This document shows positions 6,722-37,230 of a DNA stretch of 64,000 bases, one piece after another; the first letter of the stretch is position 1, and every line of letters begins with the position of its first letter. Both the position numbers and the translations under genes were made by a program. The stretch lies in NCBI GenBank assembly GCA_011773785.1, contig WVWY01000001.1:3085-67084 (forward strand), written 5' to 3'. The DNA is from Candidatus Nitrosomaritimum khambatensis. Its GTDB lineage: Archaea; Thermoproteota; Nitrososphaeria; Nitrososphaerales; Nitrosopumilaceae. The notes under the pieces were generated by a model. That model was not told the origin of the DNA and made no database searches. It saw only the letters and a program-made list of their open reading frames with translations.

Positions 6722-7654
6722 ATGGGCTTTGATGATACTGTTTTAATTTGTGATGAAGTAGATCCAATTTTAAACAAAGTTTTAGAAGACAATGGTTTGA
6801 AAGTTTCTTACGAACCAACAATTACTCCTGAACAAATTGTGGAAAAAATTTCTGATTTCAATATTGTAATTGTTCGAAGCAGAACTACAATTACAAAAGA
6901 AATGATTGACAAAGCCGATAACTGTAAAATTATTGCACGAGTTGGAGTCGGACTTGATAATATTGATCAAGAAGCTGCCAAAGCAAAAAACATTCGAGTA
7001 ATCAATGCAGTTGAAGGGGCAATGAATGCAGTTGCTGAACTAGTTTTAGGATTAATGTTATCTTTAGCAAGACAAACTGCTAGAGGTGATAGAGGAATTC
7101 GTAACGGCCAGTGGCTCAAAAAAGAATTGAAAGGAACCGAGCTTAGAGGAAAGTATCTTGGAATTGTTGGATGTGGAAACATTGGAAAAAGATTAGGTCG
7201 ACTTGCAAGAGCACTAAACATGAACATTATTGGCTATGACGTTATTCCAATTGATGAAGAGTTTTCAAAAGAAGTTGGATTGATGAAAGCTGATTTGGGA
7301 ACTTTGTTGCAAAGCTCAGACTATATCTCAATTCATGTCCCATTGTTAGATTCTACTTATCACTTAATTGATGCTCAAAAAATCTCTACAATGAAAAAGA
7401 CTGCCAAAATCATCAACACATCTCGTGGGGGAGTTATTGATGAAGATGCACTTTACGAGGCCCTGAAAAATGGTAATCTTGGGGGTGCTGCCCTAGATGT
7501 ATTTGAGAAAGAGCCTGCACTTGAGCATAAATTAGCAGAGCTAGATAACGTAATACTCACTCCTCACATTGGAGCACAAACAAAAGAGGCACAAAATTTG
7601 GCTGCAAATGTTATTGGAGAAAAGATAATACAAATTCTTCGCGGTGTTATCTGA
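6722..7654 (+). CDS. serA: D-isomer-specific 2-hydroxyacid dehydrogenase (D-3-phosphoglycerate dehydrogenase-like)
   Basis: NAD fold 'GIVGCGNIGKRLG', 'NTSRGGVIDEDAL', and 'TPHIGAQT'. I preferred the ATG at 6722 over the GTG at 6710. Confidence 0.75.
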   Translation: MGFDDTVLICDEVDPILNKVLEDNGLKVSYEPTITPEQIVEKISDFNIVIVRSRTTITKEMIDKADNCKIIARVGVGLDNIDQEAAKAKNIRVINAVEGAMNAVAELVLGLMLSLARQTARGDRGIRNGQWLKKELKGTELRGKYLGIVGCGNIGKRLGRLARALNMNIIGYDVIPIDEEFSKEVGLMKADLGTLLQSSDYISIHVPLLDSTYHLIDAQKISTMKKTAKIINTSRGGVIDEDALYEALKNGNLGGAALDVFEKEPALEHKLAELDNVILTPHIGAQTKEAQNLAANVIGEKIIQILRGVI

Positions 7655-7755
7655 GCCTAAAGTTTTCATCTTTACAAAAAATAACTAAAAAAGCTTGACT
7701 GATACGTGATTAATTGTCATCTAATTTGTTTTAACGTCAATTTTGAGGAAAATCC

Positions 7756-8613
7756 ATGTTGAATAATACGGGCAATACTAGTTTGCAATCAGAATTACAA
7801 CGAGGCGTTCCTAAATTGAACTATCTTTTGATAATTTCCTTTGGACTAATTTTTGTTGCAATTCTTTCATCAACTTTTGTATATGCTGAAACTACATCTG
7901 TAAATGTTGAAGGCAACTCGTACAGCATTGATTACAATGCAGATGGTCTAACTGTAAACAATGTAGAGCCTGACTTGGATTTTATTTCATTAATTTTTAG
8001 TGTTGATGTTACAAGTTCTCCTGGAACTTTGGAAGTCACTTTTGAGAGAAGCTTCTTTGATTCTATTTACCAAGGAAGTGATGATGCATTTATTGTTCTT
8101 GCCGATGGTGATGAGCCATCTTATTCTGAAACTGAAACTACTGCTACCTCAAGAACACTAAGTATTACATTACCATCTGGTACAGAAGAAGTTGAAATTA
8201 TTGGTACTGTGTTTGCAAGCCCACAACCAGAACCTGAACCAGAACCAACACCAGAGCCAGAACCTGAACCAGAGCCAGAACCTAAACCCGAACCAACTCC
8301 ACAACCAAAACCTGAAGAAAAACCACAACCAACACCAGAAGAAAAACCAACACCAAAACCTGAAGAAAAACCTAGAACAGAATGCGGTCCTGGAACAATT
8401 CTAAAAGATGGTGTTTGTGTTTTAGATCAAAGATGCGGTCCTGGAACAGTACTTGAAGATGGTGTTTGTGTTGTTGTATCTACACCACAGCCAACAGCTT
8501 CTCCATCTGGTATGGGTAAAGAATTAGTTTATGGAATCATTGCTGCATTTGTTGTTGCGGGAATAGTTGGAATAATTCTGGCATTGATGTCAAAGGCTAG
8601 CAAATCTTCCTAG
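7756..8613 (+). CDS. Secreted, C-terminally anchored protein with a PE/PT-rich linker and a duplicated Cys motif
   Basis: N-terminal hydrophobic segment, a '[35 protein letters not shown]...' linker, two copies of 'CGPGT(I/V)L(K/E)DGVCV', and a C-terminal TM helix plus 'KASKSS'. Confidence 0.6.
8221..8373 (+). repeat. Low-complexity cca/gaa/cct repeat DNA encoding the PE/PT linker
   Basis: Runs of 'ccagaacctgaaccagaacca...' are visible directly. Confidence 0.85.
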
Positions 8614-9131
8614 TCATTATTTTCACACAATGAATCTTCATTCATCATTTGAGTAAAGTCAAATCCTGAATGAGTCACTGTGATTTGATAAGGAATTACG
8701 CCTATAATTCGAGTATCGTATGTGGTTTTTAGGATCATTTCTGTTGGGTCTATTCTCATAGGAACTTCACCTGCAAACTGGCCATCCATATGCATGAAAA
8801 GATACTGGGATTCTGAATAACTATCAGAAGAAAACTTTACTTCCAGGATTTGAGATGATTCTGGTTCCAAGGTCTGCTGTCCTATTGCAAATGTTCCTTT
8901 CACATCCTCTCTGTAAAGTGCCTCAATTCTTAATCCATTAAAGGTGACAAAAAATGGATTGGGATTGCAAAGTTTTATTCTTTCATAGTTTGCCATATCA
9001 AAATAACTAAATTTCTCATCTGCAGTTCTAATCTGAATTTGCTCAATAGAGTAAATATTCCAAAATCCATACAACACAGGAATTACTATTACAATTATTG
9101 CAATTGCAGTAATGATGGTATATTTGTTCAT
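8610..9131 (-). CDS. Hypothetical membrane-anchored protein
   Basis: N-terminal TM '[21 protein letters not shown]'. The gene lies 1 nt downstream of the preceding gene on the same strand. Confidence 0.55.
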
Positions 9132-9132
9132 T

Positions 9133-9798
9133 TTAACCAGTAATTATTTTTCTATCTAGCAAGTTCTGAATAGCGTTTGCAAAAGTTTCATCACTTAGTT
9201 TTTCTTCAAGCCACCATCCGGTAGTAAATTTGAACCATTCAGGAATGTGTATTGTTGCAATGTTATCTTTGTTAATTTCAAATGGAATGCTAATGTCTTG
9301 TTTTTCTACAACTTTGTTAATTGAATCAATGAAGATTCCTGCAGAGACTTGGTTGATGAGCCAACTGTATGCAATTTGTTTTGTTTGAAATGGAATTACA
9401 AGATTTCCCGTATCAATTAATTCAAACTCTGCAGTATGTTCAGCTCCAGAATACTGAACATCAATAAAGTATTTTCCTTCAGGAAAAACCATTTTCTCAA
9501 AAGGATAGAGTGATGGAACATCTGTTTTTAATTCGGATATTTCAAAAGGTATGGCACTACTTCCCTTACCTGATTCATCTCTGATGTGAATTATTGCAAG
9601 GTCTCCGGTGATTTCACTTACCTCTATGGTATAGAACAATTTTTCACCATAAGAGTAGGTCGTTTTTTCCAAAATAATCTGCACATCAGGCTCGGCAAAA
9701 GCTATGGGAATTGCAAATAGGCTAGCCACAAAAACTCCAAGAGCAAGTATGCCTAATTTCACAAAAAACATGGTCGACTTTCGTAATAAAAACCGCAA
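9133..9798 (-). CDS. Hypothetical secreted protein
   Basis: Signal-like 'FFVKLGILALGVFVASLFAIPIAFA'. I recognised no catalytic motif. Confidence 0.55.
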   Translation of the reverse strand: MRFLLRKSTMFFVKLGILALGVFVASLFAIPIAFAEPDVQIILEKTTYSYGEKLFYTIEVSEITGDLAIIHIRDESGKGSSAIPFEISELKTDVPSLYPFEKMVFPEGKYFIDVQYSGAEHTAEFELIDTGNLVIPFQTKQIAYSWLINQVSAGIFIDSINKVVEKQDISIPFEINKDNIATIHIPEWFKFTTGWWLEEKLSDETFANAIQNLLDRKIITG

Positions 9799-9965
9799 GA
9801 ATTTACCAGGAATCTTTTTTAATATCTGCGAGAATTTTTAAACATCGAGTTTTCTGCGGATGCACCTCTTTGAGTGCGGATAAAACCCACTCTTAGAGAT
9901 TTTTACAAATTCAAAGTAAAATGTATGGTTTTACAGTTATTAAAGGGGTTTTTTCTATTGCCGAT

Positions 9966-10424
9966 ATGCCCAGTTTACAAGACAAGGTATGGATACGACT
10001 TTGGAATGAAAATTCTCCTGATATCCGAGATCGAGTAGTTGGATGGCGTAAACAAAGTGCCGTTACTAGAATCGACAGACCTAGCAGAATACAAAGGGCA
10101 AGAAGATTAGGCTACAAAGCAAAACAAGGTATCGTTGTAGTCCGAATGAGAGTTGGAACTGGTGGTATGAGAAAACAAAGACCAACTGGTGGAAGAAGAC
10201 CAAAACATCTTGGTGTTACTCGAATAAAGGGTGATGACAGCATGAAGAAAGTTGCAGAGCGCAGAGTTTTGGAAAAATACCCAAACATGAAACTTTTGGG
10301 CTCTTACTTTGTATACAAAGACGGAAAGCACTATTGGTTTGAAATAATTTTGGCAGACCCACAACATCCAAGAATTGCTCAAGATAAAGAAATTCGAAAT
10401 AGACTAGGCGCATCAGCTGCATAA
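9966..10424 (+). CDS. rpl15e: 50S ribosomal protein L15e
   Basis: 'WRKQSAVTRIDRPSRIQRARRLGYKAKQGIVVVRMRVGTGGMRKQRPTGGRRPKHLGV' is an L15e core. I chose the start at internal ATG 9966 (MPSLQDK); the ORF-track start at 9921 adds 15 non-conserved residues. Confidence 0.85.
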   Translation: MPSLQDKVWIRLWNENSPDIRDRVVGWRKQSAVTRIDRPSRIQRARRLGYKAKQGIVVVRMRVGTGGMRKQRPTGGRRPKHLGVTRIKGDDSMKKVAERRVLEKYPNMKLLGSYFVYKDGKHYWFEIILADPQHPRIAQDKEIRNRLGASAA

Positions 10425-10426
10425 AA

Positions 10427-11251
10427 TTGAATTTTAAATTATTAATTCCAGCATTTTTGATTCTAAGCTTTTCTCCTGCTTTTGGACAACTTTCAGACGC
10501 AACTGGTTTAGTTAATCGGTTTGATATTGAAACTGGAGGTCATATTTTTGAAATCACAACAACTGCAAATTTTGATGTCACTGATGTAGATTTTGACAAG
10601 GATGCAAAACAACTAACATTTCATATTGTAAGTAGCCTTGAAAACAACCTCGGTGAAATTATAATTCCTTCCAACTTGCTTAGCGGAAATTTTACTTTCC
10701 TTCTAAATGATCAGAATTATCAACCTAAAATTAAGACCAATGACAGAATTGCATTTATCACCTTAAACTTCACTGGTGCGGGTGAAAACAAAGTAGATGT
10801 GTTTGCAACAAACTATCTACAAGGTGTTGATGAGGTTGAGCCTGAAATCAATGGTTCTTCTGAAGAAAATCTACCACAAGATGAAGGCGGAGGGTGTTTA
10901 ATTGCAACTGCAACATTTGATTCAGAACTCTCCCCTCAAGTTCAACAGCTCAGAGAATTACGTGATAACAAATTGCTAAAAACACAATCAGGTACTGCAT
11001 TTATCAAACACTTCAATGAATTTTACTACTCTTTTTCCCCATACATTGCCGATTATGAAAGAGAAAATCCCTTATTCAAAGAAGCTGTAAAATTAACAAT
11101 TACTCCAATGTTGGCTAGCCTTTCAATACTAAACCATGTTAATTTGAATTCCGAAGCTCAAGTTGTTGGATTTGGATTAAGTGTAATTGGTTTGAATTTA
11201 GGAATGTACTTTGCAATGCCTGCACTAATCTATTTGAGGTTTAGAAAATGA
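10427..11251 (+). CDS. Secreted protein with a C-terminal 'C-L-I-A-T-A' (CFI-box-like) domain and terminal TM segment
   Basis: Signal peptide 'LLIPAFLILSFSPAFG'. 'GGGCLIATATFDSELSPQVQQLRELRDNKLL...FYYSFSPYIA' matches my recollection of the CFIATAA...REFRD C-terminal domain. The protein ends in a hydrophobic helix plus 'RFRK'. Confidence 0.65.
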   Translation: MNFKLLIPAFLILSFSPAFGQLSDATGLVNRFDIETGGHIFEITTTANFDVTDVDFDKDAKQLTFHIVSSLENNLGEIIIPSNLLSGNFTFLLNDQNYQPKIKTNDRIAFITLNFTGAGENKVDVFATNYLQGVDEVEPEINGSSEENLPQDEGGGCLIATATFDSELSPQVQQLRELRDNKLLKTQSGTAFIKHFNEFYYSFSPYIADYERENPLFKEAVKLTITPMLASLSILNHVNLNSEAQVVGFGLSVIGLNLGMYFAMPALIYLRFRK

Positions 11252-11334
11252 AAAAATCTCTAATCGGAGTAATAGGAATTGCAGTAAGTGTAATTGTATA
11301 TTATTCTCTAATGTCTTATTTGTGGGGCTTTTAG
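11248..11334 (+). CDS. 28-aa single-TM micropeptide, ATGA-overlapped with the preceding gene
   Basis: ATG 11248-11250 overlaps the TGA at 11249-11251 of the upstream gene. The product is MKKSLIGVIGIAVSVIVYYSLMSYLWGF. Confidence 0.4.
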   Translation: MKKSLIGVIGIAVSVIVYYSLMSYLWGF

Positions 11335-11360
11335 AATTTCTAAAGACGTTGAATTGTTTT

Positions 11361-11370
11361 TATTTTAAAT
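11361..11370 (+). promoter_or_regulatory. TATA-like box upstream of the second micropeptide ORF
   Basis: 'tattttaaat' lies about 20 nt upstream of ATG 11386. Confidence 0.25.
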
Positions 11371-11385
11371 CAAATAATTCACCTT

Positions 11386-11466
11386 ATGGAAAATGACAAA
11401 ATAGCAATAATAGCAGGATTTGCAATTGTTGTTGCTTTGTCATTGGCTGTAGTTTACCTACTATGA
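11386..11466 (+). CDS. 26-aa single-TM micropeptide (speculative)
   Basis: MENDKIAIIAGFAIVVALSLAVVYLL, preceded by a TATA-like box. Confidence 0.3.
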   Translation: MENDKIAIIAGFAIVVALSLAVVYLL

Positions 11467-11691
11467 TTTACTTGGAAAATCAGTACAACATTGATAATTT
11501 ATTGAGATACTCTAAATAGAAAAATTGAGGAATGATTATTCCTCGCACGTGTATAATTGCTGTTTTAGCTCTTTGATTTCTTGCTCAAGGAGTCTTTTTT
11601 CTAATTGTATGTTATCAAGGTTCATTGGATTTGATCTTAAAATTTAGGAAAAAGGTCGGAAGGTGAAAAAAATTGATCTTTTGCTTTGAGT

Positions 11692-12357
11692 TTATCCTTC
11701 GTCAATGAGTTTTTGGATCATTGAATCCAGATGTCCTGTTTGGCCAAAGGAGACATCCCTTAAGATCCCTTTTCTATCAACAACTATGGTGGAAGGGGTT
11801 CCCTGCAATGCATATTTTTCAAAGGTCTCTGCAGAATACTCTTTTGACATTAAATGGTCCTTTACTCTTTGGATGATTGAATTGCGATAGTCTTCTGGTT
11901 GAGAATCAAATTCTGGAAGTTGTGCATAGATAAATTTCATAATTTGATCCTGGCTTACTTCTCCTGCTGTTTTGGTAAGATTGTCCATTGCCAATGGAAA
12001 TGGAATTTTAAATGGAAGTTTGTTACCTTCTTTTAGTTGACCATACATTGAGAGTGCATCTTTAGTTTCACCAATAACTTCCCCAGTTTCAGCAAGCATC
12101 TTCAAGTTATCTAGTGTATTTTTATCAAAATCTTCAAAGGCAGTAGCTATTCCCAAAAATCTTACTCCCTCATCTTTGTATTTGTTGTAGAGGTTTATTG
12201 CTTCAGGAATTGCATACATAAAGCATCCTGGACAATTTACTTGAAATACCTCAACGATGACAATTTTGTCTTTTTCTTGGTCTAGGTTTGTTGGTGCACC
12301 TTGTACCCATTCTGAAATTCCTAGATTGGGAGCTTTTTGGCCTATTACTGCACTCAT
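11692..12357 (-). CDS. Thioredoxin-fold thiol-disulfide oxidoreductase (AhpC/TSA / TlpA-like)
   Basis: 'VEVFQVNCPGCFMYAIPEA' contains a CPGC redox motif, and a 'GTPSTIVVDRKG' cis-Pro loop region follows. Confidence 0.7.
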   Translation of the reverse strand: MSAVIGQKAPNLGISEWVQGAPTNLDQEKDKIVIVEVFQVNCPGCFMYAIPEAINLYNKYKDEGVRFLGIATAFEDFDKNTLDNLKMLAETGEVIGETKDALSMYGQLKEGNKLPFKIPFPLAMDNLTKTAGEVSQDQIMKFIYAQLPEFDSQPEDYRNSIIQRVKDHLMSKEYSAETFEKYALQGTPSTIVVDRKGILRDVSFGQTGHLDSMIQKLIDEG

Positions 12358-12432
12358 TGTAAATAATCAAATTTTTTCCATTAAATACATATCTAAAGTC
12401 TCTAGTTTTATGACGAATAATTATTGAATTTC

Positions 12433-12552
12433 TTAATTACACTCTGAACAAATTTTATCACTTTCAACTTTTCCTCTTCTGTGATCCATGAGATATTCAT
12501 GAGAAACTTCTTCCTCTTCCATTTCTTTTCCACACTTTCGACATACAACCAT
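12433..12552 (-). CDS. 39-aa zinc-ribbon-like protein (not in the ORF track)
   Basis: MVVCRKCGKEMEEEEVSHEYLMDHRRGKVESDKICSECN, with CxxC...CxxC pairs at both ends. Confidence 0.45.
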   Translation of the reverse strand: MVVCRKCGKEMEEEEVSHEYLMDHRRGKVESDKICSECN

Positions 12553-12771
12553 AATTAGATTTTCACTTTAATTCTGAGATTCAAAGCCTTTACTGCTGCA
12601 CCAAAGGACGTAATTGCACATACACTATTCCATTTTGTTTAAGGCCTTGACCTCATTATTCGTACACCTTTATCGAATTTAAGAAGTGTGCCTATTATCA
12701 CAACTTAGCATTTGATTTTTGTTTAGTATAATCAGGATCAATCTTAAGTATTATGTTCACATAGTAATAAC

Positions 12772-12865
12772 AACGAGGAACTGCCATTTCCCATTCATGC
12801 GGCAGAGGAGAGCGGATTGGTTTAGTTGCCCCTAGAATTCGTTCGATTTTCCTGAATTCCTCGTT
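12772..12865. other. Structured non-coding element closed by a perfect 9-bp long-range helix
   Basis: 'aacgaggaa' (12772-12780) pairs with 'ttcctcgtt' (12857-12865). Nested inside are ctgcc/ggcag (12781-85 / 12801-05) and two gaattc copies (12835-40 / 12854-59). There is no ORF, and the element is locally more GC-rich than its flanks. Confidence 0.25.
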
Positions 12866-12963
12866 ACTTCTTTTTCAATGAGACGATCAGGATGTAGATT
12901 TTGATATTTGCAAGAAAAATTTTACAAATGATTAGAAAACTATCCTGCGAAATCAGATTAACC

Positions 12964-12971
12964 TAATATAT
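12964..12971 (+). promoter_or_regulatory. TATA box of the HEAT-repeat / multi-cupredoxin gene pair
   Basis: 'taatatat' is centred about 28 nt upstream of ATG 12995. Confidence 0.35.
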
Positions 12972-12994
12972 GACTCTAAAACCACACAAGCCAA

Positions 12995-13483
12995 ATGCAA
13001 GTTGTTACGGATGACCGGCTCCAACTTTTTGCAGAGATGGAGGCAAAGTATGAGCAAAAAGATACTGAATATTTTGTAAAACTATTGGATCATCCTGATT
13101 ATGTTGTAAGAACAAGAGCCACTTGTATTTTGGTAGACTTTGGTGGTGAAGACAAAATTCCTCATGTTGCCAAAGTCCTAAAACATGATGATAATGAACT
13201 TGTAAGACACGAGGCAGCATTTTCTTTGGGTCAAATGGGACTTTCTAGTGGAGTTCCTCCTTTAATTGATGCAACCCTAAATGACCCCAGCATGTTTGTA
13301 AGACACGAAGCAGCAATAGCTCTAGGAGTTGTGGGTTCTAATGATGCCAAAGAAGCTCTGGAAAAAGCACTAAAAGATCCTGATGAACCTGTTGTAGAAT
13401 CAGCAGTTGTTGCATTATCTAATATTGAATTTATGGAAAAATTAAGTAAAAACGAAAAATTTGCAAAATTAACTGGAGGATAA
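12995..13483 (+). CDS. HEAT-repeat (PBS-lyase / EZ-HEAT type) protein
   Basis: Repeated 'D.....VR.EAA.ALG..G' units: 'VRTRATCILVDFG', 'VRHEAAFSLGQMG', 'VRHEAAIALGVVG', 'VVESAVVALSNI'. Confidence 0.75.
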   Translation: MQVVTDDRLQLFAEMEAKYEQKDTEYFVKLLDHPDYVVRTRATCILVDFGGEDKIPHVAKVLKHDDNELVRHEAAFSLGQMGLSSGVPPLIDATLNDPSMFVRHEAAIALGVVGSNDAKEALEKALKDPDEPVVESAVVALSNIEFMEKLSKNEKFAKLTGG

Positions 13484-13486
13484 AAA

Positions 13487-15709
13487 ATGAATCTTACTTA
13501 TGGAATAATGGCAGCAATTGGATTGCTTGTTGCTGGAATCTTGGGTTCTATTGCAATGGATTCAGGATATCTTCAAGATGCACCTGCAATGCCAACAATT
13601 GAAAAACCAACAATTTGTACAAGTGAATATAATCCTGTTTGTGGTGTTGACATGAACACCTATGGAAACCTGTGTAAGGCATTTGTAGCTGAAGTTGAAG
13701 TTTTACACAAAGGTGAATGTGGTGAAATGATTGAAGAACCAATTCCTGTGGATGTTGGAACTTCAATGCCTGTCCCTGAAATCCTAGTATCAATACCTGA
13801 AGGCTCTGGGATGCCAGGATGTGAAGAGACAAACGAATGTTACATTCCTTATTCAGTTAACGTAGGAGTTGGCCAAACCGTATCTTGGAGTAATGATGAC
13901 ACTGCAGCTCACACAGTTACATCTGGAAGCCCAGCTGATGGCCCAGATGGAATGTTTGACTCTAGCATGATTATGGCAGGTGCAACTTTTGAATTTACTT
14001 TTGATGAAGAAGGAACTTTTGTTTACTATTGTATTGTTCATCCTTGGATGATTGGCGAAGTGGTAGTTGGCGATGCTGGTGAAATGATAGTTGAACCTGA
14101 AGAACCTCCACATGATGCTGATATTGATGGATTTACACCTCCACCAGAACCTGAACCAGAACCCGAACCTGAACCCTTAACAGACGTTCCAGTTAGTTCT
14201 GCAATGCCACGAGCTCCAATGACTCATACAGTTGAAATGGCAATTGGCTCTGGAGTTCCAGGATGTGAACAAAACAACGAGTGTTATCTTCCATATTCAT
14301 TAGAGATACTAGTTAGAGACACAGTACTTTGGGACAATATTGATTCAGCTTCACACACTGTAACTGCAGGAACTTCAGCTGATGGACCAACTGGATTATT
14401 TGATAGTGGGTTATTTTTGGCAGGTGCAACTTTTGAATTTACATTTGAAGAAGCAGGAGTTTATCCTTACTTTTGCATGGTTCATCCTTGGATGACTGGA
14501 GAAATTATTGTAAATGAAGTACAAGAAATTATTGTAGAGCCACCACATCCTGCTGCAGATGATAGGGACATGATTGTTGATGAACCAATAGTTGAAGAAA
14601 GAATGTCAGGACCACATGAGGTAGACATGGCAATAGGCTCTGCAGTGCCAGGATGTGAAGAAACTTTAGAATGTTATTTGCCATATCAAATTGAGATTAG
14701 TTCTGGAGAAACTGTTCTTTGGAACAACATTGACTCAGCTGCCCACACAGTAACAAGTGGAGAAGCAGGTGCTCCTGATGGCATTTTTGATTCAGGAATG
14801 GTAATGTCTGGTGGCTCTTACGAGTTTACATTTGTAGAACCAGGTGAATATGATTACTATTGTATGGTTCATCCTTGGATGACAGGCAAAATTATGGTAA
14901 GCGAGTTTGCAGAAATTAAAACCATGGAAGGCGATGCTGTTAGGCAAACTTCCTCAAGTCCATCATCTGAAGAATCACAAACACATGCTTCTCCTGAGGA
15001 GATAAAGGCAATGGTTACAGACGCAATTGCTCTGTATGATGAAATTGGAATGGACTCTTTTGAATCATTTAATTCAAGTCCAGATTTTCACAAATCTGAC
15101 CTTTACATGTTTGTATTTCGAGATTCAGATAGTATAATGATGGCCCATGGGGCAAATGCGGCACTAATTGGAGAATCTGTAGATAAGATTCTTGATATCT
15201 ATGGAGAAAGCATCGGAAAGATGGTTCATGACAAAGCTACCAAAGAAGGTGCTTGGATAGAATATCTCTGGTGGGATCCCACAGACAATGAGACTCATCC
15301 AAAAATTGTTTGGGCGGTAAAACATGACGGCTATATTTTTGGAACTGGTTCATACAGCGATGCTGAACCAACTTCTGTAGAACCCCAGATTGAACCCTCA
15401 GAACTACGTGCGACATCTTTTGAAGTTATTATTCCAGTAGGTTCGCCACTTGAAGGATGTGAGAATCTCAATACTTGCTATGTTCCTTACCAAGCTGAAA
15501 TTAATTCTGGGGAATCAGTAATTTGGAATAATATTGATTCTGCACCACACACAATAACTAGCGGAGCCTCAGAGACTCCTGATGGCATATTTGATTCTGG
15601 ACTGATTATGGCCTCTGAATCATTTGAGTTTACATTTACAGAAGCTGGAGAATATGATTACTATTGTACTACACATCCTTGGATGACTGGCAAAATTATT
15701 GTTGCCTAA
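13487..15709 (+). CDS. Secreted or membrane-anchored mosaic protein: Kazal-like module + 3 cupredoxin (plastocyanin-like) domains + single-Cache-like domain + a 4th cupredoxin
   Basis: N-terminal TM. 'CTSEYNPVCGVDMNTYGNLCKAFVAEVEVLHKGEC' is Kazal-like. Four repeats carry type-1 Cu ligands ('AAHTVTSG...YYCIVHPWMIGEV', 'ASHTVTAG...YFCMVHPWMTGEI', 'AAHTVTSG...YYCMVHPWMTGKI', 'APHTITSG...YYCTTHPWMTGKI'). 'LYMFVFRDSDSIMMAHGANAALIGESV...GAWIEYLWWDP...WAVKHDGYIFGTGSY' resembles sCache_2. Confidence 0.85.
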   Translation: MNLTYGIMAAIGLLVAGILGSIAMDSGYLQDAPAMPTIEKPTICTSEYNPVCGVDMNTYGNLCKAFVAEVEVLHKGECGEMIEEPIPVDVGTSMPVPEILVSIPEGSGMPGCEETNECYIPYSVNVGVGQTVSWSNDDTAAHTVTSGSPADGPDGMFDSSMIMAGATFEFTFDEEGTFVYYCIVHPWMIGEVVVGDAGEMIVEPEEPPHDADIDGFTPPPEPEPEPEPEPLTDVPVSSAMPRAPMTHTVEMAIGSGVPGCEQNNECYLPYSLEILVRDTVLWDNIDSASHTVTAGTSADGPTGLFDSGLFLAGATFEFTFEEAGVYPYFCMVHPWMTGEIIVNEVQEIIVEPPHPAADDRDMIVDEPIVEERMSGPHEVDMAIGSAVPGCEETLECYLPYQIEISSGETVLWNNIDSAAHTVTSGEAGAPDGIFDSGMVMSGGSYEFTFVEPGEYDYYCMVHPWMTGKIMVSEFAEIKTMEGDAVRQTSSSPSSEESQTHASPEEIKAMVTDAIALYDEIGMDSFESFNSSPDFHKSDLYMFVFRDSDSIMMAHGANAALIGESVDKILDIYGESIGKMVHDKATKEGAWIEYLWWDPTDNETHPKIVWAVKHDGYIFGTGSYSDAEPTSVEPQIEPSELRATSFEVIIPVGSPLEGCENLNTCYVPYQAEINSGESVIWNNIDSAPHTITSGASETPDGIFDSGLIMASESFEFTFTEAGEYDYYCTTHPWMTGKIIVA

Positions 15710-15712
15710 ATT

Positions 15713-17791
15713 TCACAGGGAAGTAATTTTACTTCCGTTTTCTGTTGACTCAAACCTGTAAATTCTTTCAACAGTAGAATCTTCAAAAATTTCCGCATCA
15801 TGAGTAATTATTACAAATTGCATTGGATTAGAAGAATTTGCAATATTGGATAATTGTGATAAAACTCCTACTAGGGATTTTTTTCTTTCTACATCAAGAT
15901 GAGTTGTAGGCTCATCTAAAATCATCAAATTGAGGTTTGATGCTCCTAAAAGATGTGCCATTCCTAGTCTCAAGGCTAAGGCCACGCTTACTTGTTCGCC
16001 TCCGCTTAGCGATTCTAAATCAAGAACTTCTTTTTTAGAATAACATGTAATTGAGATATCTCTTGTTTTTTCTGCAAGCTGAAGTCTTTGAATTTTTGTG
16101 TTAAGTAATGTTAGATATTCCGAGGCCTTCGATGAAATGGAATTAAGTGCCCAAGATCTCAAGCTAGTTGCAACTACACCATCTCTATTGAAAACATTTG
16201 TTTGAATATCGTTAAGTTCGTTAATGTATTCTTTCACTTTTCTTAATTCAGTCATTGACTCTTTAATTTTTGAGATATTTTCTTGATGTTTGAGAATTTT
16301 TTCATTGATTGCCCCTAATCTTTGATCCACATTTGATAATTCAGATTGTTTTTCCTCAACTAAATTTTTTAGATTTAAAAATTTGTCTTCTTCAAATCCA
16401 ATAGTTTCATCTTCTAATTTTGAAATATTTTCAAATAATAATTGTGAATGGGAATCTATTTTTGCTATTTCTAAAAGATTACTACTTGATATAACTGGAA
16501 TTTTGTCTATACTTATTTTCTTTATTTGAATCTCTTCTTTGATTTTGTTTAATTCATTTTCATCTTTTACAGAATGTGCTTTTAAAGTGGCTTCGGCATC
16601 AATTGAGCTTTGAAGTTTTTTTGAAAATTCTAATTTTTTAGTATGGTACATTTCTTTTTCTTTTTGTGAAGAAGAGATTTGATTTTTAATGGATTCTAAT
16701 TCATTAGCAAGATGTTCTTCTTGAAACAGCGGGTTTAGTTTTTCAACTTCTGAATCACAAACTGGACATTTGTTATCCATAAGTTGAAGCTTTTTTGCAA
16801 GATTTTGTTTTTCCTTAAGTGCTGTCTCTAAATTAGAAAGTTCTTGGATTTTCTTTTGGGCTTGTTCAATAGCTAACGTTATTTTTTCTAGTTTATTCTC
16901 AAGGTCGTCTTTCAGGCCCGCATATTCAAAACAATGCTCACAATCTTCAATTTTACGCTCTTTTTCGGCAATTTCACGCTGAATTTCTTTAATAGCCTCA
17001 CGTGCATATGACTGAAGTTCCTTTTTCCTCAAATCAAGTTGCTTAATTTTTTCTATTTTAGGGGTTTCATCCTCTAGTTTTTTGCGTAAATTTGAAACTT
17101 CAGACAAAAGCATTTTTTGAATTGTTTGTAGCCTTTCTTTTTCAGGTTTAGATTCTTCAAGTTCTTTTAGATAATTTTCTAGATCTCTTTCAAGAATGTC
17201 TATGTGAGTATCATCAAACCCCTCTTTTTGTTTTATTTCTTCACGAAACTCCTTGATTACCTCTTTCATATTGTTTGATGCAACATCTAATTTATCAATA
17301 CCAATAACTGCATTTAGTAATTCCTTGAATTCCTTAGGTTTTGCTTTTATTATTGAATTAAGTTCTCCTTGTTGAACTATGGATGCAATTTTTAATTTTT
17401 CAAAATCTAGCCCCAAGGTTTTTTCAATTTCATGAGTCATAGACTCTCCAAATTGTTTTCTTTCTCCTGATGCAATCTCAGTAACTTCCCCATTATTTAT
17501 TTTGGAGAATTTTGCCGCTAATGCTCCTTTACTGTCAATTTTTCTTACTGCTTCGTATTGTTGTCCATTTATTGTGAATGTTACTTTGGAATATCCTTGT
17601 GTTGAACCTCTTCGTATCAAGCCTTTACTGGATTTTCTGGTATGTTTTCCAAACAAAGCAAAGGTAATTGCATCAATTATGCTTGATTTTCCTGCCCCAT
17701 TATGTCCTACAAATACTGTAACACCATTTTCAAAATTTAATTTCGTATCTGAATGCGAAAGAAAATTACCTATCTCAACTGAATTAATCAT
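15713..17791 (-). CDS. rad50: DNA double-strand break repair ATPase Rad50
   Basis: Walker A 'GHNGAGKSSIIDAITFALFG', a long coiled coil with the zinc hook 'NKCPVCDS', signature 'LSGGEQVSVALALRL', and Walker B 'LMILDEPTTHLD'. The start at ATG 17791 overlaps the end of mre11 by 8 nt. Confidence 0.9.
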   Translation of the reverse strand: MINSVEIGNFLSHSDTKLNFENGVTVFVGHNGAGKSSIIDAITFALFGKHTRKSSKGLIRRGSTQGYSKVTFTINGQQYEAVRKIDSKGALAAKFSKINNGEVTEIASGERKQFGESMTHEIEKTLGLDFEKLKIASIVQQGELNSIIKAKPKEFKELLNAVIGIDKLDVASNNMKEVIKEFREEIKQKEGFDDTHIDILERDLENYLKELEESKPEKERLQTIQKMLLSEVSNLRKKLEDETPKIEKIKQLDLRKKELQSYAREAIKEIQREIAEKERKIEDCEHCFEYAGLKDDLENKLEKITLAIEQAQKKIQELSNLETALKEKQNLAKKLQLMDNKCPVCDSEVEKLNPLFQEEHLANELESIKNQISSSQKEKEMYHTKKLEFSKKLQSSIDAEATLKAHSVKDENELNKIKEEIQIKKISIDKIPVISSSNLLEIAKIDSHSQLLFENISKLEDETIGFEEDKFLNLKNLVEEKQSELSNVDQRLGAINEKILKHQENISKIKESMTELRKVKEYINELNDIQTNVFNRDGVVATSLRSWALNSISSKASEYLTLLNTKIQRLQLAEKTRDISITCYSKKEVLDLESLSGGEQVSVALALRLGMAHLLGASNLNLMILDEPTTHLDVERKKSLVGVLSQLSNIANSSNPMQFVIITHDAEIFEDSTVERIYRFESTENGSKITSL

Positions 17792-18926
17792 TTTTTTTCT
17801 CCTTAAATTTTGCAAAATTTTCTAAAACCACTTGTAGCGCTTCTTTAGTTTGATTTGTGGTTAGAGGTGGTAATAATTCTCTTATAGCAAATTCTGCCTT
17901 GTCTTCCTTACCTAAAGCGTTAATGGATAATTTGAATAATTCATCATCAATTGCATTTGGTCTTTCTAAAAATATAGATGCATCAGTTTCCTCTTTACCA
18001 CGAATTCTCCAAAAACATCTCAAACTTTTGGCCTCAATGGGTGCAATTTGTGCCTGAATTTGCTCTACCTCTACATTTTGACCTTGAATTTTTAACTCAA
18101 TGATTGGCTTTTTTTCCAAAAGTTCAATTTTTTCTAAAATCTCGCTAACCTCTTTTCCTAATTCATCATAATTTGTTTTAAATGAGAATTGAGGTCTGGT
18201 ATGTAACTCAATCCAATTTGCCTTGGCTTCTTTTTCAGAAATATCTACTTCAAAAAATCCTTTTTTCGCTTCTTTTATCCCCTCGCTTGTTGTAAGTTCT
18301 ATTGACCCTGGATATGCAATGGGACCATTAAGATGATTGAAATTTTTAATGTCTGTGTCATGAAGATGACCCATTGCATAATACGAAAAATTTTTTGGTA
18401 GATCAGTTGATTGTAATTCTCCTGCAAATTTGTTAAATTCAGTTATTCCTTGATGTAATACTAGGATTTTATGACCAGAAAAATTTTTTGCAGCATTATC
18501 TAATTCTGCAAATTTTTCTTCATATCTTGGTATTTCTGCTTTTCTTATTTTATCTAAACCGGCTAAAAGAATTCCTTTGTATTCAAAAGGCTTACCTTGT
18601 CCGATATATTTTGAAAATTCTAAATTATGATAAACATATGGGATTGGTGTTGTACGAATTCTGCTAATATCGTGTTCGCCTAAGATAAAAAATGAATCTA
18701 TGCCATTTTGTTTTAATCTTTTCAAAGCATTTGCCATTTGAACAATAGCTGTTCCACTTGGATTGGGAACATGAAAAATATCTCCTGCAAAAATCACAAA
18801 ATTTACATGGTCTTTAATTGAAGTGTCTATTGCTTCATTAAAAGCTAGATAGATGTCTTGCTCTCTTTCCTCAGAGCCATACTGTGCTAAACCCAAATGA
18901 GTATCTGATATATGCGAAAATAACAT
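17784..18926 (-). CDS. mre11: DNA repair nuclease Mre11
   Basis: Phosphoesterase motifs 'HISDTHLG', 'FAGDIFH', 'ILGEHD', 'VLHQG' and 'AMGHLHD'. Confidence 0.9.
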   Translation of the reverse strand: MLFSHISDTHLGLAQYGSEEREQDIYLAFNEAIDTSIKDHVNFVIFAGDIFHVPNPSGTAIVQMANALKRLKQNGIDSFFILGEHDISRIRTTPIPYVYHNLEFSKYIGQGKPFEYKGILLAGLDKIRKAEIPRYEEKFAELDNAAKNFSGHKILVLHQGITEFNKFAGELQSTDLPKNFSYYAMGHLHDTDIKNFNHLNGPIAYPGSIELTTSEGIKEAKKGFFEVDISEKEAKANWIELHTRPQFSFKTNYDELGKEVSEILEKIELLEKKPIIELKIQGQNVEVEQIQAQIAPIEAKSLRCFWRIRGKEETDASIFLERPNAIDDELFKLSINALGKEDKAEFAIRELLPPLTTNQTKEALQVVLENFAKFKEKKND

Positions 18927-20459
18927 TTAGTCTAATAACAAATCTTTTTGGACAAGTCCCTGGGTTGACTCTACTGCAATCTCATTCATTTTTTTGGTGC
19001 TGGCCCAAGCATTGACAGCACTTTGATCAGCTCCCATCATCTTTTCTTTTACCTCCTCTACATGCACCAATGAAGGTAAATTGGTCCATTGGCCGACTAG
19101 AACCGCATCTCCCACATTAAGTGAGGTCAATTGAGATATCAAATCACGGCTAGTAGATTCGGTGGCCGAGGCTATTTGGCGTTGATCATCTTCTTGAATA
19201 ATCTTCATAATGGCAAATGATCCCATTTGGCTTAATACATTCAAATCCACACTTCTAGGTCTTTGAGAAACAATCCCTAGTCCTAATCCAAACTTTCTTC
19301 CCTCTCTAGCAATTTTTGCTGCCCAATATTTTGCACCAGTGTCGTGTTCTTTGGGAATGAATACATGTGCTTCTTCAATTATTACAAAAATTGGCGAATG
19401 GAATCGATAATTTCTTTCTCTTTTTGATCTCCCATGTTGTGCTATACTTGCATCTTTTCTGTCTTTAAGTAATTGTTGAAGATAAAATGAAACTGCTACA
19501 TTAGCTTGTTTTTCTGATAATTCTGAAATGTTTAGGATGTTTGTTCTTCCTTCCTTGATGAAACTAATTGGGTCTCCCATGTCAGGATCTAAAATATCCT
19601 CGAATCTTTTTTGTGCCTCTTCCACTATGTCTTGAACTCTATAAGCTGAAGCCCGAATCTCTTTTAGTTTTTTATCCTCAGTGCTTACAATGAATTCGAG
19701 TTCATTTTCGAGTTTTGACCAAAATTCCTTAGATTCCCTAACATTTTTTGTAAATGCCATACGCAAAACTCTTTGTTGAACATTTGCTCCGTCTCTTATC
19801 TCTAATACTTCGGAAAATTGATCAGCATCTAAAAGTCTAGGATTAATTTTTGCATCAATAACGTTGATTCTAGGAATATTCAGAGTTGTATAATCATTAT
19901 GATAATCAAATATTATTACAGTTCCATCAAGTTTTCCAATTTGTTTTGCAACCAAAGATACCAAATTACTTTTTCCCATTCCTGTCATTGCCAAAATTCC
20001 TAAATGTCGAGAAACTATTTTGTCCAAATTGACTTTCGCTTCAATTGACTTGTTTCTTAGCAATGTTCCAATTTTTGCCCATCCTTCGTTTTGAGAACTA
20101 AAAATTGATTCTAATTCTTGTTTGGTAGGTTGAGTAATTTTTGTGCCTGGAATAGGGGGAATTGCCGGAATAATTGATTGGCCTTTTTGTAATTTGTCCA
20201 AAAATCCTAAAATTCCGATATTTGCTGTGAATGTTTTATCTCGTTTGTTTATCTCAGCAATCTCTGTACTTTCTGCTGCTTCATCAAAATTTTTAACATC
20301 TGCAAAGGCAGCACTTGATATTTTCGATTTTTCTACCAGCCCTAGAATTTTTCCTTCTTCAGTATCAATAATTGTGTACTCCCCAACAGAAAGAGGTCTT
20401 GAGGTAAGAGCAGTAACAAATGTGGGCTTGGATTCTCCAATAACATATCCTAAACTCAT
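18927..20459 (-). CDS. herA: HerA-type bipolar DNA helicase / ATPase
   Basis: Walker A 'GILAMTGMGKSNLV', Walker B 'FVIIEEAHVFIP', and its position between nurA and mre11. Confidence 0.85.
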   Translation of the reverse strand: MSLGYVIGESKPTFVTALTSRPLSVGEYTIIDTEEGKILGLVEKSKISSAAFADVKNFDEAAESTEIAEINKRDKTFTANIGILGFLDKLQKGQSIIPAIPPIPGTKITQPTKQELESIFSSQNEGWAKIGTLLRNKSIEAKVNLDKIVSRHLGILAMTGMGKSNLVSLVAKQIGKLDGTVIIFDYHNDYTTLNIPRINVIDAKINPRLLDADQFSEVLEIRDGANVQQRVLRMAFTKNVRESKEFWSKLENELEFIVSTEDKKLKEIRASAYRVQDIVEEAQKRFEDILDPDMGDPISFIKEGRTNILNISELSEKQANVAVSFYLQQLLKDRKDASIAQHGRSKRERNYRFHSPIFVIIEEAHVFIPKEHDTGAKYWAAKIAREGRKFGLGLGIVSQRPRSVDLNVLSQMGSFAIMKIIQEDDQRQIASATESTSRDLISQLTSLNVGDAVLVGQWTNLPSLVHVEEVKEKMMGADQSAVNAWASTKKMNEIAVESTQGLVQKDLLLD

Positions 20460-36144: not shown

Positions 36145-37230
36145 TTATCCAGTTTCTACTGTGCCTACCATCCATGGGTGCACTACGCAGTAATAGTCTA
36201 CTAGACCTGATTCCATGAAAGTATATTCAAATGAATCTCCTGCCATTATCATTCCTGAATCAAATAATCCGTCAGCTCCATCTGCAGGAGTACCTGATGT
36301 AACTGTGTGAGCTGCTGAATCTTCATTAACCCAAACTACAGTTGTTGCAGGTTCTACTTGGAGATTCTCTGGATCATAATAGATTTGTCCTTCTTGTCTT
36401 ATTCCTGCACCTTCTGGCATGATTACTGTTACTGGTTCTTTTGGTTCTTCGATAATAATTTTTGATACCATCCAAGGATGGACAATACACAAGTATTCAT
36501 ACTCTCCTAGCTCTAAAGCAGATGTATCAAGTTGGTATTTTTCCCCTTTATCTAGCAATCCTGAATCAAATGTCTCTCCAATATCTTCTGAACTTGTAAC
36601 AGTATGTGCAAGTGAATCTACATTAGTCCATTCAATGATGTATCCTTGTGGAACATAAGCTACATCTGGTTCATAATCTGGGTTTCCTTCAACAGCAGAG
36701 TTTGCTAAAATTGTAATTGGATATATTGGACCTGTTGGCTCTGCTTCAACTTCTTCTTCTACAATTTCTTCAGCAATTATGTATGTGTCTGGACTTACAA
36801 ATCCAAATGCTACAAAGGAAACTATCCCTGTAATTCCTGCTAATGCAATTATTGTTCCTATAGGTTTGATTCGTGTAGGCATTTTTGCTGCCACATATGC
36901 TATTACTATTGCTGGAAATGCAATTGCCAACAACAAACCTGCAAATATGTTAGTAGATTCTATAGTATTCATAGTAAATGAGTACATTCCAAATCCAAGA
37001 GCAATTGAAAGCACAACTAGCGTAGTTGCCTTGGCCCGGTTGCTTGTTGAGACCCCTCCATCTAAAATTCCTGCTGCAAGAAATATCAGCCCTATAAACA
37101 TGGTAAGGCCTGTAAGTGCATGCATTCCATCAATGAATGTATGAGCCAGTCCTGCATAGGAAATCACTACTCCAGCCAAGCCTATGGCCGTTAATCCCAT
37201 ACCTGGCATCATGAGGTCCCAATTACTCAT
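36145..37230 (-). CDS. Polytopic membrane protein with two C-terminal cupredoxin (plastocyanin-like) domains
   Basis: About 5 N-terminal TM helices, then 'LAHTVTSS...YEYLCIVHPWMVSKI' and 'AAHTVTSG...VDYYCVVHPWMVGTV', which carry H/C/H/M type-1 Cu ligands. Confidence 0.8.
   Translation of the reverse strand: MSNWDLMMPGMGLTAIGLAGVVISYAGLAHTFIDGMHALTGLTMFIGLIFLAAGILDGGVSTSNRAKATTLVVLSIALGFGMYSFTMNTIESTNIFAGLLLAIAFPAIVIAYVAAKMPTRIKPIGTIIALAGITGIVSFVAFGFVSPDTYIIAEEIVEEEVEAEPTGPIYPITILANSAVEGNPDYEPDVAYVPQGYIIEWTNVDSLAHTVTSSEDIGETFDSGLLDKGEKYQLDTSALELGEYEYLCIVHPWMVSKIIIEEPKEPVTVIMPEGAGIRQEGQIYYDPENLQVEPATTVVWVNEDSAAHTVTSGTPADGADGLFDSGMIMAGDSFEYTFMESGLVDYYCVVHPWMVGTVETG

Follow-up and report, generated by a model that had tools for sequence, protein, structure and literature searches.

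An archaeal Kazal–multi-cupredoxin protein at a conserved HEAT-linked locus carries an optional Cache–cupredoxin cassette

Results

Architecture of the mosaic gene

We analyzed a 64,000-nucleotide stretch of the genome of Candidatus Nitrosomaritimum khambatensis (contig WVWY01000001.1 of assembly GCA_011773785.1, positions 3,085 to 67,084; hereafter the window, numbered from its first letter), focusing on a HEAT-repeat gene and the mosaic gene that follows it on the same strand (Table 1). Pfam searches and structure tests resolve the 740-residue mosaic protein into an N-terminal anchor, a Kazal domain, cupredoxins 1–3, an sCache_2-type domain (hereafter Cache) and cupredoxin 4, in that order, joined by linkers that are acidic, proline-rich or rich in serine and threonine. 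The protein as a whole is very acidic (126 aspartate and glutamate residues versus 21 lysines and arginines), and the window, with 30–40% G+C, holds genes that match those of Nitrosopumilaceae. A prior reading of this DNA from its letters alone (the sequence-only reading) had proposed a transmembrane anchor, a four-cysteine Kazal-like module at 13616–13720, four cupredoxins with complete His/Cys/His/Met ligands, acidic or proline-rich linkers between the repeats, a Cache at about 14990–15355 that lacks an output domain, and tight linkage to the HEAT gene. Our analyses bear out each of these features, reproduce the Kazal coordinates exactly and place the Cache at 14990–15361. The Kazal module, which that reading had called a cap, instead forms the base of the chain, next to the membrane anchor.

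Residues 6–24 form the sole hydrophobic segment of the protein by Kyte–Doolittle analysis, and this segment is kept in the orthologues, where it is followed by the motif D(S/P)GYL. The stop codon of the HEAT gene lies 3 nt before the ATG of the mosaic gene, with a Shine–Dalgarno-like motif in the last codons of the HEAT gene (Table 1), and a HEAT gene lies directly 5′ of the orthologous gene in all seven loci compared (the window, L001, L002, L003/L006, L004, L005 and L013). The two genes probably share one operon. The gene order common to the orthologues is L15e, a 274-residue secreted protein, a redoxin on the other strand, the 162-residue HEAT gene and then the Kazal–cupredoxin gene; this partnership with HEAT is independent of whether a Cache is present. 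Scores of the HEAT open reading frame (ORF) for the NCBIfam equivalogs NblB and CpcE fall far under their cutoffs, so we give the HEAT protein no specific function.

Table 1. Features of the HEAT–mosaic locus in window coordinates.
Feature	Position	Strand	Basis or detail
HEAT-repeat protein gene, 162 aa, without signal peptide	12995..13483	+	HEAT_2 92.6 bits, HEAT_PBS 49.9 bits (PF13646/PF03130)
GGAGG Shine–Dalgarno-like motif (AACTGGAGGATAAAAAATG)	13475..13479	+	In last HEAT-gene codons, 7 nt 5′ of ATG at 13487
Mosaic protein gene, 740 aa, stop codon included	13487..15709	+	ORF, Pfam
N-terminal hydrophobic segment, residues 1–24 (core 6–24), signal-anchor or signal peptide	13487..13558	+	Kyte–Doolittle maximum 2.2
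Kazal domain, two-disulfide non-classical type, C44, C52, C63, C78 (residues 44–78)	13616..13720	+	Pfam, profile, AlphaFold2, Foldseek
Cupredoxin 1 (H142, C182, H185, M188), residues about 100–195	13784..14071	+	Pfam, ligand set, PDB matches
Linker, acidic, proline-rich, 52 aa (14 Asp/Glu, 14 Pro)	14072..14227	+	Sequence
Cupredoxin 2 (H290, C330, H333, M336), residues about 248–343	14228..14515	+	Pfam, ligand set
Cupredoxin 3 (H420, C459, H462, M465), residues about 378–472	14618..14902	+	Ligand set, orthology
26-nt direct repeat, left copy (CATCCTTGGATGACAGGCAAAATTAT)	14870..14895	+	3′ end of cupredoxin 3
Linker, cupredoxin 3 to Cache, Ser/Thr/Glu-rich, 29 aa	14903..14989	+	Sequence
sCache_2-type domain, residues 502–625, long N-terminal helix and PAS-like sheet	14990..15361	+	Pfam, AlphaFold2, Foldseek
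Linker, Cache to cupredoxin 4, Pro/Glu/Ser-rich, 20 aa	15362..15421	+	Sequence
Cupredoxin 4 (H688, C727, H730, M733), residues about 646–740, cassette-type	15422..15706	+	Ligand set, tree
26-nt direct repeat, right copy, 25/26 identical	15674..15699	+	3′ end of cupredoxin 4

A non-classical Kazal module

The Kazal_1 family (PF00050; MEROPS I1) matches residues 43–64 with 29.6 bits (cutoff 21), and Kazal_2 falls narrowly under its cutoff (20.7 versus 22.8). A profile built from 18 archaeal Kazal modules matches 74 distinct PDB Kazal sequences; the best match overall is the multi-domain protein agrin (E 4.6e-41), and the best single-domain match is GmSPI-2, Galleria silk proteinase inhibitor 2 (2m5x/4hgu; E 1.2e-18). 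The AlphaFold2 (AF2) model, with a predicted local distance difference test score (pLDDT) of 88, consists of a strand, a helix and a strand, and Foldseek superposes it on 4hgu with template modeling (TM) scores of 0.79/0.90 and a root-mean-square deviation of 1.4 Å. The match, whose significance the sequence-only reading had left to be checked, is therefore highly significant. The module departs from the classical six-cysteine, three-disulfide pattern in having four cysteines, with other residues at the Cys1 and Cys5 positions; it retains the seven-residue reactive-site loop, the P1 position at Cys+2 and the β2-α-β fold, and its C-x7-C-x10-C-x14-C spacing is fixed in 95 family members. Because profile, fold and cysteine spacing match GmSPI-2, we conclude that the archaeal module is a genuine non-classical Kazal.

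The reactive-site loop, C44-TSEYNPV-C52, aligns with C-TLEYRPL-C of the ovomucoid third domain and C-TTEWDPV-C of GmSPI-2, which makes Ser46 the predicted P1 residue. Ser46 aligns to Leu18 of OMTKY3, which we take to be the P1 of that inhibitor, and its assignment agrees with the Cys+2 rule stated for GmSPI-2. GmSPI-2 is itself a four-cysteine, two-disulfide Kazal with threonine as P1 at Cys+2, and its activity against both subtilisin and proteinase K is high (PMC4169406). Across the 95 family members, P1 is lysine in 37, leucine in 28, methionine in 24, asparagine in 5 and serine in 1, and thus varies among residues typical of working inhibitors. The only literature mention that we found with relevance to this Kazal is an arCOG label, 'Kazal-type serine protease inhibitor', in a paper on a sponge symbiont.

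Four cupredoxins with type-1 copper ligands

Copper-bind (PF00127) matches the protein in four stretches (E 3.7e-34). Each of the four repeats has a complete His/Cys-x2-His-x2-Met set that can be aligned with the copper ligands of 9cck and amicyanin; each also contains an additional Cys-x5-Cys pair. Among solved structures, repeat 1 is closest to the C-terminal cupredoxin of the multicopper oxidase Nmar_1354 (9cck; domain E 2.3e-15), followed by the 95-residue blue copper protein 5fc9 and the amicyanins. An amicyanin label for the whole protein (NCBIfam TIGR02657) was rejected, as its score of 158 passes the cutoff of 110.2 only when the four repeats are added together; amicyanin is the single-domain electron acceptor of methylamine dehydrogenase, and no methylamine dehydrogenase context was seen around the mosaic gene. 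In Nmar_1354, the 'dangling' cupredoxin holds a metalated type-1 copper with His2Cys and axial Met ligands, and a 15-residue linker places it 13.5 Å from the T1 site of the enzyme itself (PMC11761707). By homology to this domain, in which loading has been shown, each of the four cupredoxins would be expected to bind copper.

Four predicted high-affinity copper sites on one very acidic surface protein could also suggest a main role other than electron transfer, namely that of a copper store or buffer whose cupredoxins would sequester the metal for a copper-hungry organism. A surface protease shield could be considered too, as no other feature of the family is as invariant as the Kazal domain. 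The ligand sets argue otherwise, being those of canonical type-1 electron-transfer sites, as does the closest solved relative, a tethered electron-transfer domain of an oxidase. The copper-storage proteins known to us use other folds, and we regard a storage or shielding role as very unlikely.

The window contains a second blue-copper gene (36145–37230, minus strand), whose 361-residue product has a polytopic membrane N-terminus followed by two cupredoxin domains with C..HPWM motifs that are 43–46% identical to cupredoxin 4.

A Cache domain with a conserved pocket and no output domain

Within the segment between cupredoxins 3 and 4, Pfam reports sCache_2 (PF17200) at residues 531–624 with 37.8 bits (cutoff 25) and dCache_2 with 28.9 bits (cutoff 26.5). 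The AF2 model of residues 502–625 (pLDDT 77.9, predicted TM score 0.76) begins with a 28-residue helix (segment residues 2–29) that leads into a sheet, and has no C-terminal helix. Its top Foldseek matches are all sCache_2 receptors, namely 4exo/2qhk (TM score 0.72), 5g4y, 4k08 and TlpB, with E values from 5e-7 to 5e-5; model and matches together confirm the fold. The layout of such receptors is not found here: the protein lacks a second transmembrane helix, the Cache lacks a C-terminal helix, and Pfam and NCBIfam scans of the mosaic protein return no output domain.

We mapped the putative pocket by profile alignment to 4k08 and 5g4y. In PscD (5g4y), the bound carboxylate is hydrogen-bonded by Tyr90, His103, Tyr143 and Lys156 and sandwiched by Trp92 and Trp145, in a pocket lined by Phe126 and Met129 (PMC5062169). 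The four hydrogen-bonding residues correspond to Y540, H554, Y593 and K606, the sandwiching pair to F542 and W595, and Met129 to M579; these seven make up the predicted pocket, and Phe126 falls in an insertion that this Cache lacks. The four hydrogen-bonding residues are invariant in 7/7 archaeal Cache sequences. Because the carboxylate-binding residues of solved sCache_2 domains are kept, the Cache is likely to be competent for ligand binding.

To place this domain among its relatives, we used an exhaustive profile search of 1.84 billion representatives, which returned 2,521 proteins at E ≤ 1e-3, of which 697 reach E ≤ 1e-10; a word-index search with the Cache only, a method of little reach for short queries, returned one fragment. 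Tandem arrays of 2–16 Cache copies occur in 138 of the best 150 relatives, and 79 of these 150 are at least 70% Cache by length. None of the 26 clade members that we scanned with Pfam, drawn from the same best 150, contains a kinase, methyl-accepting chemotaxis protein (MCP) or cyclase domain. Their partners are all extracellular and comprise solute-binding domains (SBP_bac_3, SBP_bac_5, Peripla_BP_6/ANF_receptor), 5′-nucleotidase, Laminin_G/Ig, leucine-rich repeats (LRR), collagen, the autotransporter β-domain, cupredoxin and Kazal. The clade occurs in secreted or lipoprotein-type proteins, several of which start with lipoprotein-type signal peptides, and fusions to solute-binding proteins, 5′-nucleotidase or adhesin-type repeats are frequent in it. 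Over 570 clade domains, the pocket positions are conserved as Tyr (85%), His (72%), Tyr (87%) and Lys (82%), and both sandwich positions are aromatic. Examples of the clade include P0122–P0270 and the gene at L012 5001–11300; a 16-copy poly-Cache gene in L012 adjoins an HhH-GPD gene, which is probably a coincidence.

Arrays of up to 16 copies and adhesin-type fusions (LRR, collagen, Ig, autotransporter) suggest a building block, and receptor sCache_2 domains dimerize. The Cache could accordingly be read as a structural, oligomerization or adhesion spacer with no small-molecule role, for instance dimerizing through its long N-terminal helix or binding an S-layer component. We consider this unlikely, since four pocket residues that are invariant in the archaeal set and 72–87% conserved over the 570 domains would be unexpected in a pure spacer. 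An output-less Cache clade with a kept pocket fits ligand capture better than a signaling or purely structural role. We found no description of such an output-less tandem Cache clade in the searchable literature; its existence extends the concept of Cache beyond 'sensor input' to ligand capture outside the cell in general.

A Nitrosopumilaceae family with shuffled domain content

A protein search of 5.8 billion clusters at E ≤ 1e-10 returned 1,061 relatives of the mosaic protein. Most of the best 120, which we examined, are Nitrosopumilaceae proteins that combine a Kazal domain with two, three or four cupredoxins. The Kazal–multi-cupredoxin architecture defines a large family in this lineage, at a conserved HEAT-linked locus. 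The closest relatives, P0001 (79% identity, 471 aa) and P0002 ('Ca. Nitrosomaritimum yanchengense', 452 aa), terminate immediately beyond cupredoxin 3. Cupredoxins 1–3 are 84–92% identical to those of P0001 and P0002, and cupredoxin 3 is the orthologue of the terminal cupredoxin in Cache-less relatives (92% identical to the third cupredoxin of P0001). The Cache is absent from most members of the family. It is present in another layout in the Nitrosarchaeum-type clusters P0006–P0011 and P0015, which encode Kazal, two His-rich domains, a cupredoxin, Cache and a cupredoxin; the order Kazal, three cupredoxins, Cache, cupredoxin was seen only in the window and in L013. The Cache-bearing and Cache-less genes are positional orthologues with shuffled domain content. 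Public databases hold such sequences, annotated only as plastocyanin or blue copper protein.

The His-rich domain of the Nitrosarchaeum type is about 125 residues long (GW.RMES..H.GIGHESHQ ... HTK) and occurs as two tandem copies between the Kazal domain and the first cupredoxin. It is seen in L003 6001–8145, L004 2422–4560 and L005 2642–4816 (P0006–P0011) and also in P0004; it has no significant Pfam match and could be a further metal-binding module.

A Cache–cupredoxin cassette of separate ancestry

DNA collinearity between the window and L001, the locus of a Cache-less orthologue, stops at 14898 and resumes at 15730. Between these points the window encodes linker, Cache, linker and cupredoxin 4, and L001 has a stop codon and an HhH-GPD gene. 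The two copies of the 26-nt direct repeat lie at the 3′ ends of cupredoxins 3 and 4. The Cache–cupredoxin 4 block has a G+C content, overall and at third codon positions (GC3), like that of the rest of the gene. No second copy of either Cache or Kazal was found in the 64-kb window.

The HhH-GPD DNA glycosylase gene, at L001 7475–8092 and L002 6853–7470, has as its positional counterpart in the window the block at 14899–15729, and is absent from the whole 64-kb window.

Cache and cupredoxin also occur together outside this family. P0162 and P0321 (Ca. Nitrosotenuis) are free-standing transmembrane–Cache–cupredoxin proteins of 290 residues, whose genes occupy an unrelated locus on 29 contigs; in P0320, Cache–cupredoxin follows an anchor and about 100 residues; and P0319 has a cleavable signal peptide, Cache, cupredoxin and a 200-residue extension. 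In bootstrapped neighbor-joining trees, cupredoxin 4 groups with the post-Cache cupredoxins of these free-standing cassettes (bootstrap 98%), the Nitrosarchaeum-type post-Cache cupredoxins group with the terminal cupredoxin 3 of Cache-less orthologues (57%), and a single clade of all post-Cache cupredoxins appears in 21% of replicates. The tree of Cache domains agrees, with 76% (cassette) and 81% for its sister clades. Judged by these comparisons of sequence, Cache and cupredoxin 4 form a mobile, optional two-domain cassette with an ancestry of its own.

P0319, the closest free-standing cassette, corresponds to a full ORF of 485 residues at L014 1429–2886; its C-terminal extension of about 200 residues, with a IPDWVKNTMQWFSQGLISEQEMINGIQFLVSEGII motif, may be a surface-anchoring or interaction domain.

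Recombination at the repeated 3′ ends of the cupredoxin sequences probably added the cassette to a gene that already encoded a Kazal domain and three cupredoxins. The most economical reading, for which support is moderate and not decisive, is that the Cache probably joined this orthologous gene twice: in the Nitrosarchaeum type it stands before the terminal cupredoxin, and in the window the whole cassette stands after it. The last three codons of the L001 gene (GTT GCC TAG) resemble the end of cupredoxin 4 more closely than the end of cupredoxin 3, which is suggestive of the reverse course, with P0001-type genes arising from Cache deletion by recombination between cupredoxins 3 and 4; the rest of the terminal cupredoxin of P0001 matches cupredoxin 3 throughout, and gain and loss both fit the data.

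A scan of 185,579 species-representative genomes with two narrow peptide patterns from the Cache–cupredoxin 4 block matched three; with patterns this narrow the count is a lower bound, and the genome of the window itself was not recovered. The sequence-only reading had suggested that the protein could belong to the ammonia-oxidation machinery. That part of its proposal is weakened by the small number of matched genomes and by the absence of the block from the closest orthologues and from most of the family: a cassette that the closest orthologues do without is no core part of ammonia oxidation. The Cache–cupredoxin 4 block is an accessory module.

The junction is carried by an independent assembly

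The sequence-only reading had raised the question of whether the gene is a chimera of assembly. The exact mosaic protein is absent from the collection of 5.8 billion sequences, its closest full-length relatives end after cupredoxin 3, and P0318, a short contig with a linker and cupredoxin part 100% identical to that of the window, itself looks chimeric. Against this stands L013, a contig of the independent assembly GCA_012974945.1 that is 98.3% identical in nucleotide sequence to window 6780–16126 (9.3 kb) and encodes P0317, 98% identical to the block. Its ORF is split only by a 6-N scaffold gap in cupredoxin 3, and the junction from cupredoxin 3 through the linker into the Cache is read in frame. 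In addition, both flanks of the block are collinear with L001, its G+C and GC3 are native-like, the ORF is intact and the ligand sets are complete. We therefore consider an assembly chimera, or a recent accident of the pseudogene kind, extremely unlikely as the origin of the junction between cupredoxin 3 and Cache.

P0318 encodes a signal peptide–Cache–cupredoxin fragment on a 1,095-nt ENA contig that ends in unrelated, bacterial-looking sequence; it is probably chimeric, and we set it aside as evidence.

The accession of a sibling assembly appears in a paper on deep sediments of the Gulfs of Kathiawar, and the organism likely originates from marine sediment.

Neighboring genes

Upstream of the HEAT gene, the conserved 274-residue secreted protein (10427–11251, plus strand) has a GGGCLIATA motif, a hydrophobic C-terminal tail and no Pfam match, and its gene is kept 5′ of the HEAT/Kazal–cupredoxin pair in all related loci. 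The redoxin gene (11692–12357, minus strand) is divergent from the HEAT operon, also in conserved synteny, and encodes a thioredoxin-fold Redoxin/AhpC-TSA protein with a CPGC motif. A link between this protein and disulfide formation in the Cys-rich ectodomain is conceivable, but it has no signal peptide. Directly downstream, on the opposite strand, lies a DNA repair cluster of Rad50/Mre11/HerA(DUF87) type (15713–20459, minus strand), with the end of the Rad50 ORF separated from the mosaic-gene stop codon by only 3 nt.

Discussion

We favor, with moderate confidence, the interpretation that the mosaic protein is a tethered chain of blue-copper electron carriers with a protease-inhibitor base and an accessory ligand-capture module. 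The very acidic protein would lie outside the cytoplasm as beads on a string, held at the membrane by its N-terminal hydrophobic segment. The membrane-proximal two-disulfide Kazal domain, with its canonical reactive-site loop, would most likely bind and inhibit subtilisin-like serine proteases, and so may shield the linker-rich ectodomain or tether it to a protease-like partner. The four cupredoxins, with one type-1 copper each, would act as tethered one-electron carriers in the manner of the 'dangling' cupredoxin of Nmar_1354. The Cache is most likely a non-signaling module for a small carboxylate or similar planar oxyanion, which it would capture and localize beside the last copper domain, transmitting no signal. 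The product of the HEAT-repeat gene, predicted to be cytoplasmic, would be the conserved operon partner of the whole family.

Several observations weigh against this interpretation. The N-terminal segment lacks a positively charged n-region, which makes the topology uncertain. P1 is serine here and asparagine in the nearest relatives, weaker choices than the lysine, leucine or methionine of most members, a caveat offset by the activity of GmSPI-2 with threonine at P1. In the Cache, the model has a low-confidence loop at segment residues 48–57; Phe126 of PscD has no counterpart and Trp92 is replaced by phenylalanine, so the ligand could differ from C2–C3 carboxylates. Finally, the Cache always adjoins a cupredoxin in archaeal proteins and has seemingly joined the family twice, which hints at a functional coupling tighter than simple capture.

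Such coupling could take the form of a ligand-gated wire, in which a Cache ligand alters chain geometry or dimerization and thereby switches electron flow either between the two flanking cupredoxins (3 and 4) or between cupredoxin 4 and some partner enzyme; in a variant, the Cache-bound ligand is itself oxidized or reduced by the adjacent copper site. A cupredoxin directly follows the Cache in every archaeal protein that is readable past it, free-standing or of either mosaic layout, and the Cache, with its conserved pocket, appears to have entered the same orthologous gene in two ways, as the contrast between the 98% cassette clade and the 21% for all post-Cache cupredoxins suggests. This adjacency may equally reflect common descent of one cassette, and the grouping of the Nitrosarchaeum post-Cache cupredoxins with cupredoxin 3 reaches only 57%. 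Moreover, the flexible, low-complexity linkers vary in length, from 20–29 residues here to about 70 in P0011, which argues against rigid allosteric coupling; the Cache has no C-terminal transmitting helix; and relatives in its clade are joined to many partners with no redox role. We think gating improbable. The sequence-only reading had offered 'ligand-gated or substrate-tethering' as alternatives: tethering, or capture, is the better supported of the two, and gating has no direct support.

A more specific proposal is that the Cache–cupredoxin cassette is an unrecognized two-domain unit of ammonia-oxidizing archaea, pairing a small-anion pocket with a type-1 copper so that a nitrification metabolite is delivered, sensed or converted. 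A Cache pocket of carboxylate type might also accommodate nitrite, formate or a related nitrogen oxyanion. To our knowledge, ammonia-oxidizing archaea lack c-type cytochromes, and their extracytoplasmic electron transfer is thought to run on copper proteins. We regard the proposal as quite unlikely to hold; if true, the repeated Cache fusion would mark a ligand-coupled branch of the archaeal electron-transfer chain.

Under the interpretation that we favor, a carrier chain with accessory ligand capture, the locus defines a widespread Nitrosopumilaceae family of tethered multi-cupredoxin proteins, always with a Kazal module and a cytoplasmic HEAT partner, that recruited a ligand-binding Cache, probably more than once. 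The identity of the ligand of this 124-residue Cache would give a chemical clue to the role of the protein. The sequence-only reading knew of no description of a ligand-binding module within a multi-cupredoxin chain with a Kazal-like cap; we likewise found none in the searchable literature of a Cache–cupredoxin cassette, of a Kazal–cupredoxin protein or of a Kazal–multi-cupredoxin family with a HEAT partner. The individual domains and the multi-cupredoxin proteins of ammonia-oxidizing archaea are already known; it is their combination that is undescribed there.

Comparison with known systems

The multi-domain plastocyanin-like proteins of ammonia-oxidizing archaea are the general kin of the cupredoxins described here. 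Within the family, P0001, P0002 (the latter annotated as plastocyanin/azurin family protein) and P0007 (a Nitrosarchaeum 'blue (type1) copper protein') share the locus, the anchor and the Kazal domain with the mosaic protein; the Nitrosarchaeum type differs in that two His-rich domains replace cupredoxins 1 and 2 and the Cache precedes the terminal cupredoxin. Nmar_1354 (MCO4; 9CCK) of N. maritimus shares the cupredoxin subtype, the His2Cys plus Met ligands with C-x2-H-x2-M spacing, the flexible linker and the extracytoplasmic context of an archaeal nitrifier, whereas the mosaic protein has no multicopper oxidase core and instead strings four serial carrier domains together with Kazal and Cache.

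GmSPI-2 has the identical, gap-free C-x7-C-x10-C-x14-C spacing, 48% identity and a small polar P1 (threonine versus serine). It is a free 36-residue secreted insect inhibitor, whereas the archaeal Kazal is a membrane-proximal module of a 740-residue redox protein. The sCache_2 chemoreceptor domains (PscD-SD, 5G4Y; Adeh_3718, 4K08; Vibrio, 4EXO) resemble the Cache in fold, with TM scores up to 0.72, and in the Tyr/His/Tyr/Lys carboxylate residues, one of the two sandwiching tryptophans and the pocket methionine. Unlike them, the Cache is not set between two transmembrane helices, has no C-terminal helix and is coupled to no output of the HAMP, MCP or kinase kind; its clade consists of tandem, output-less extracellular domains.

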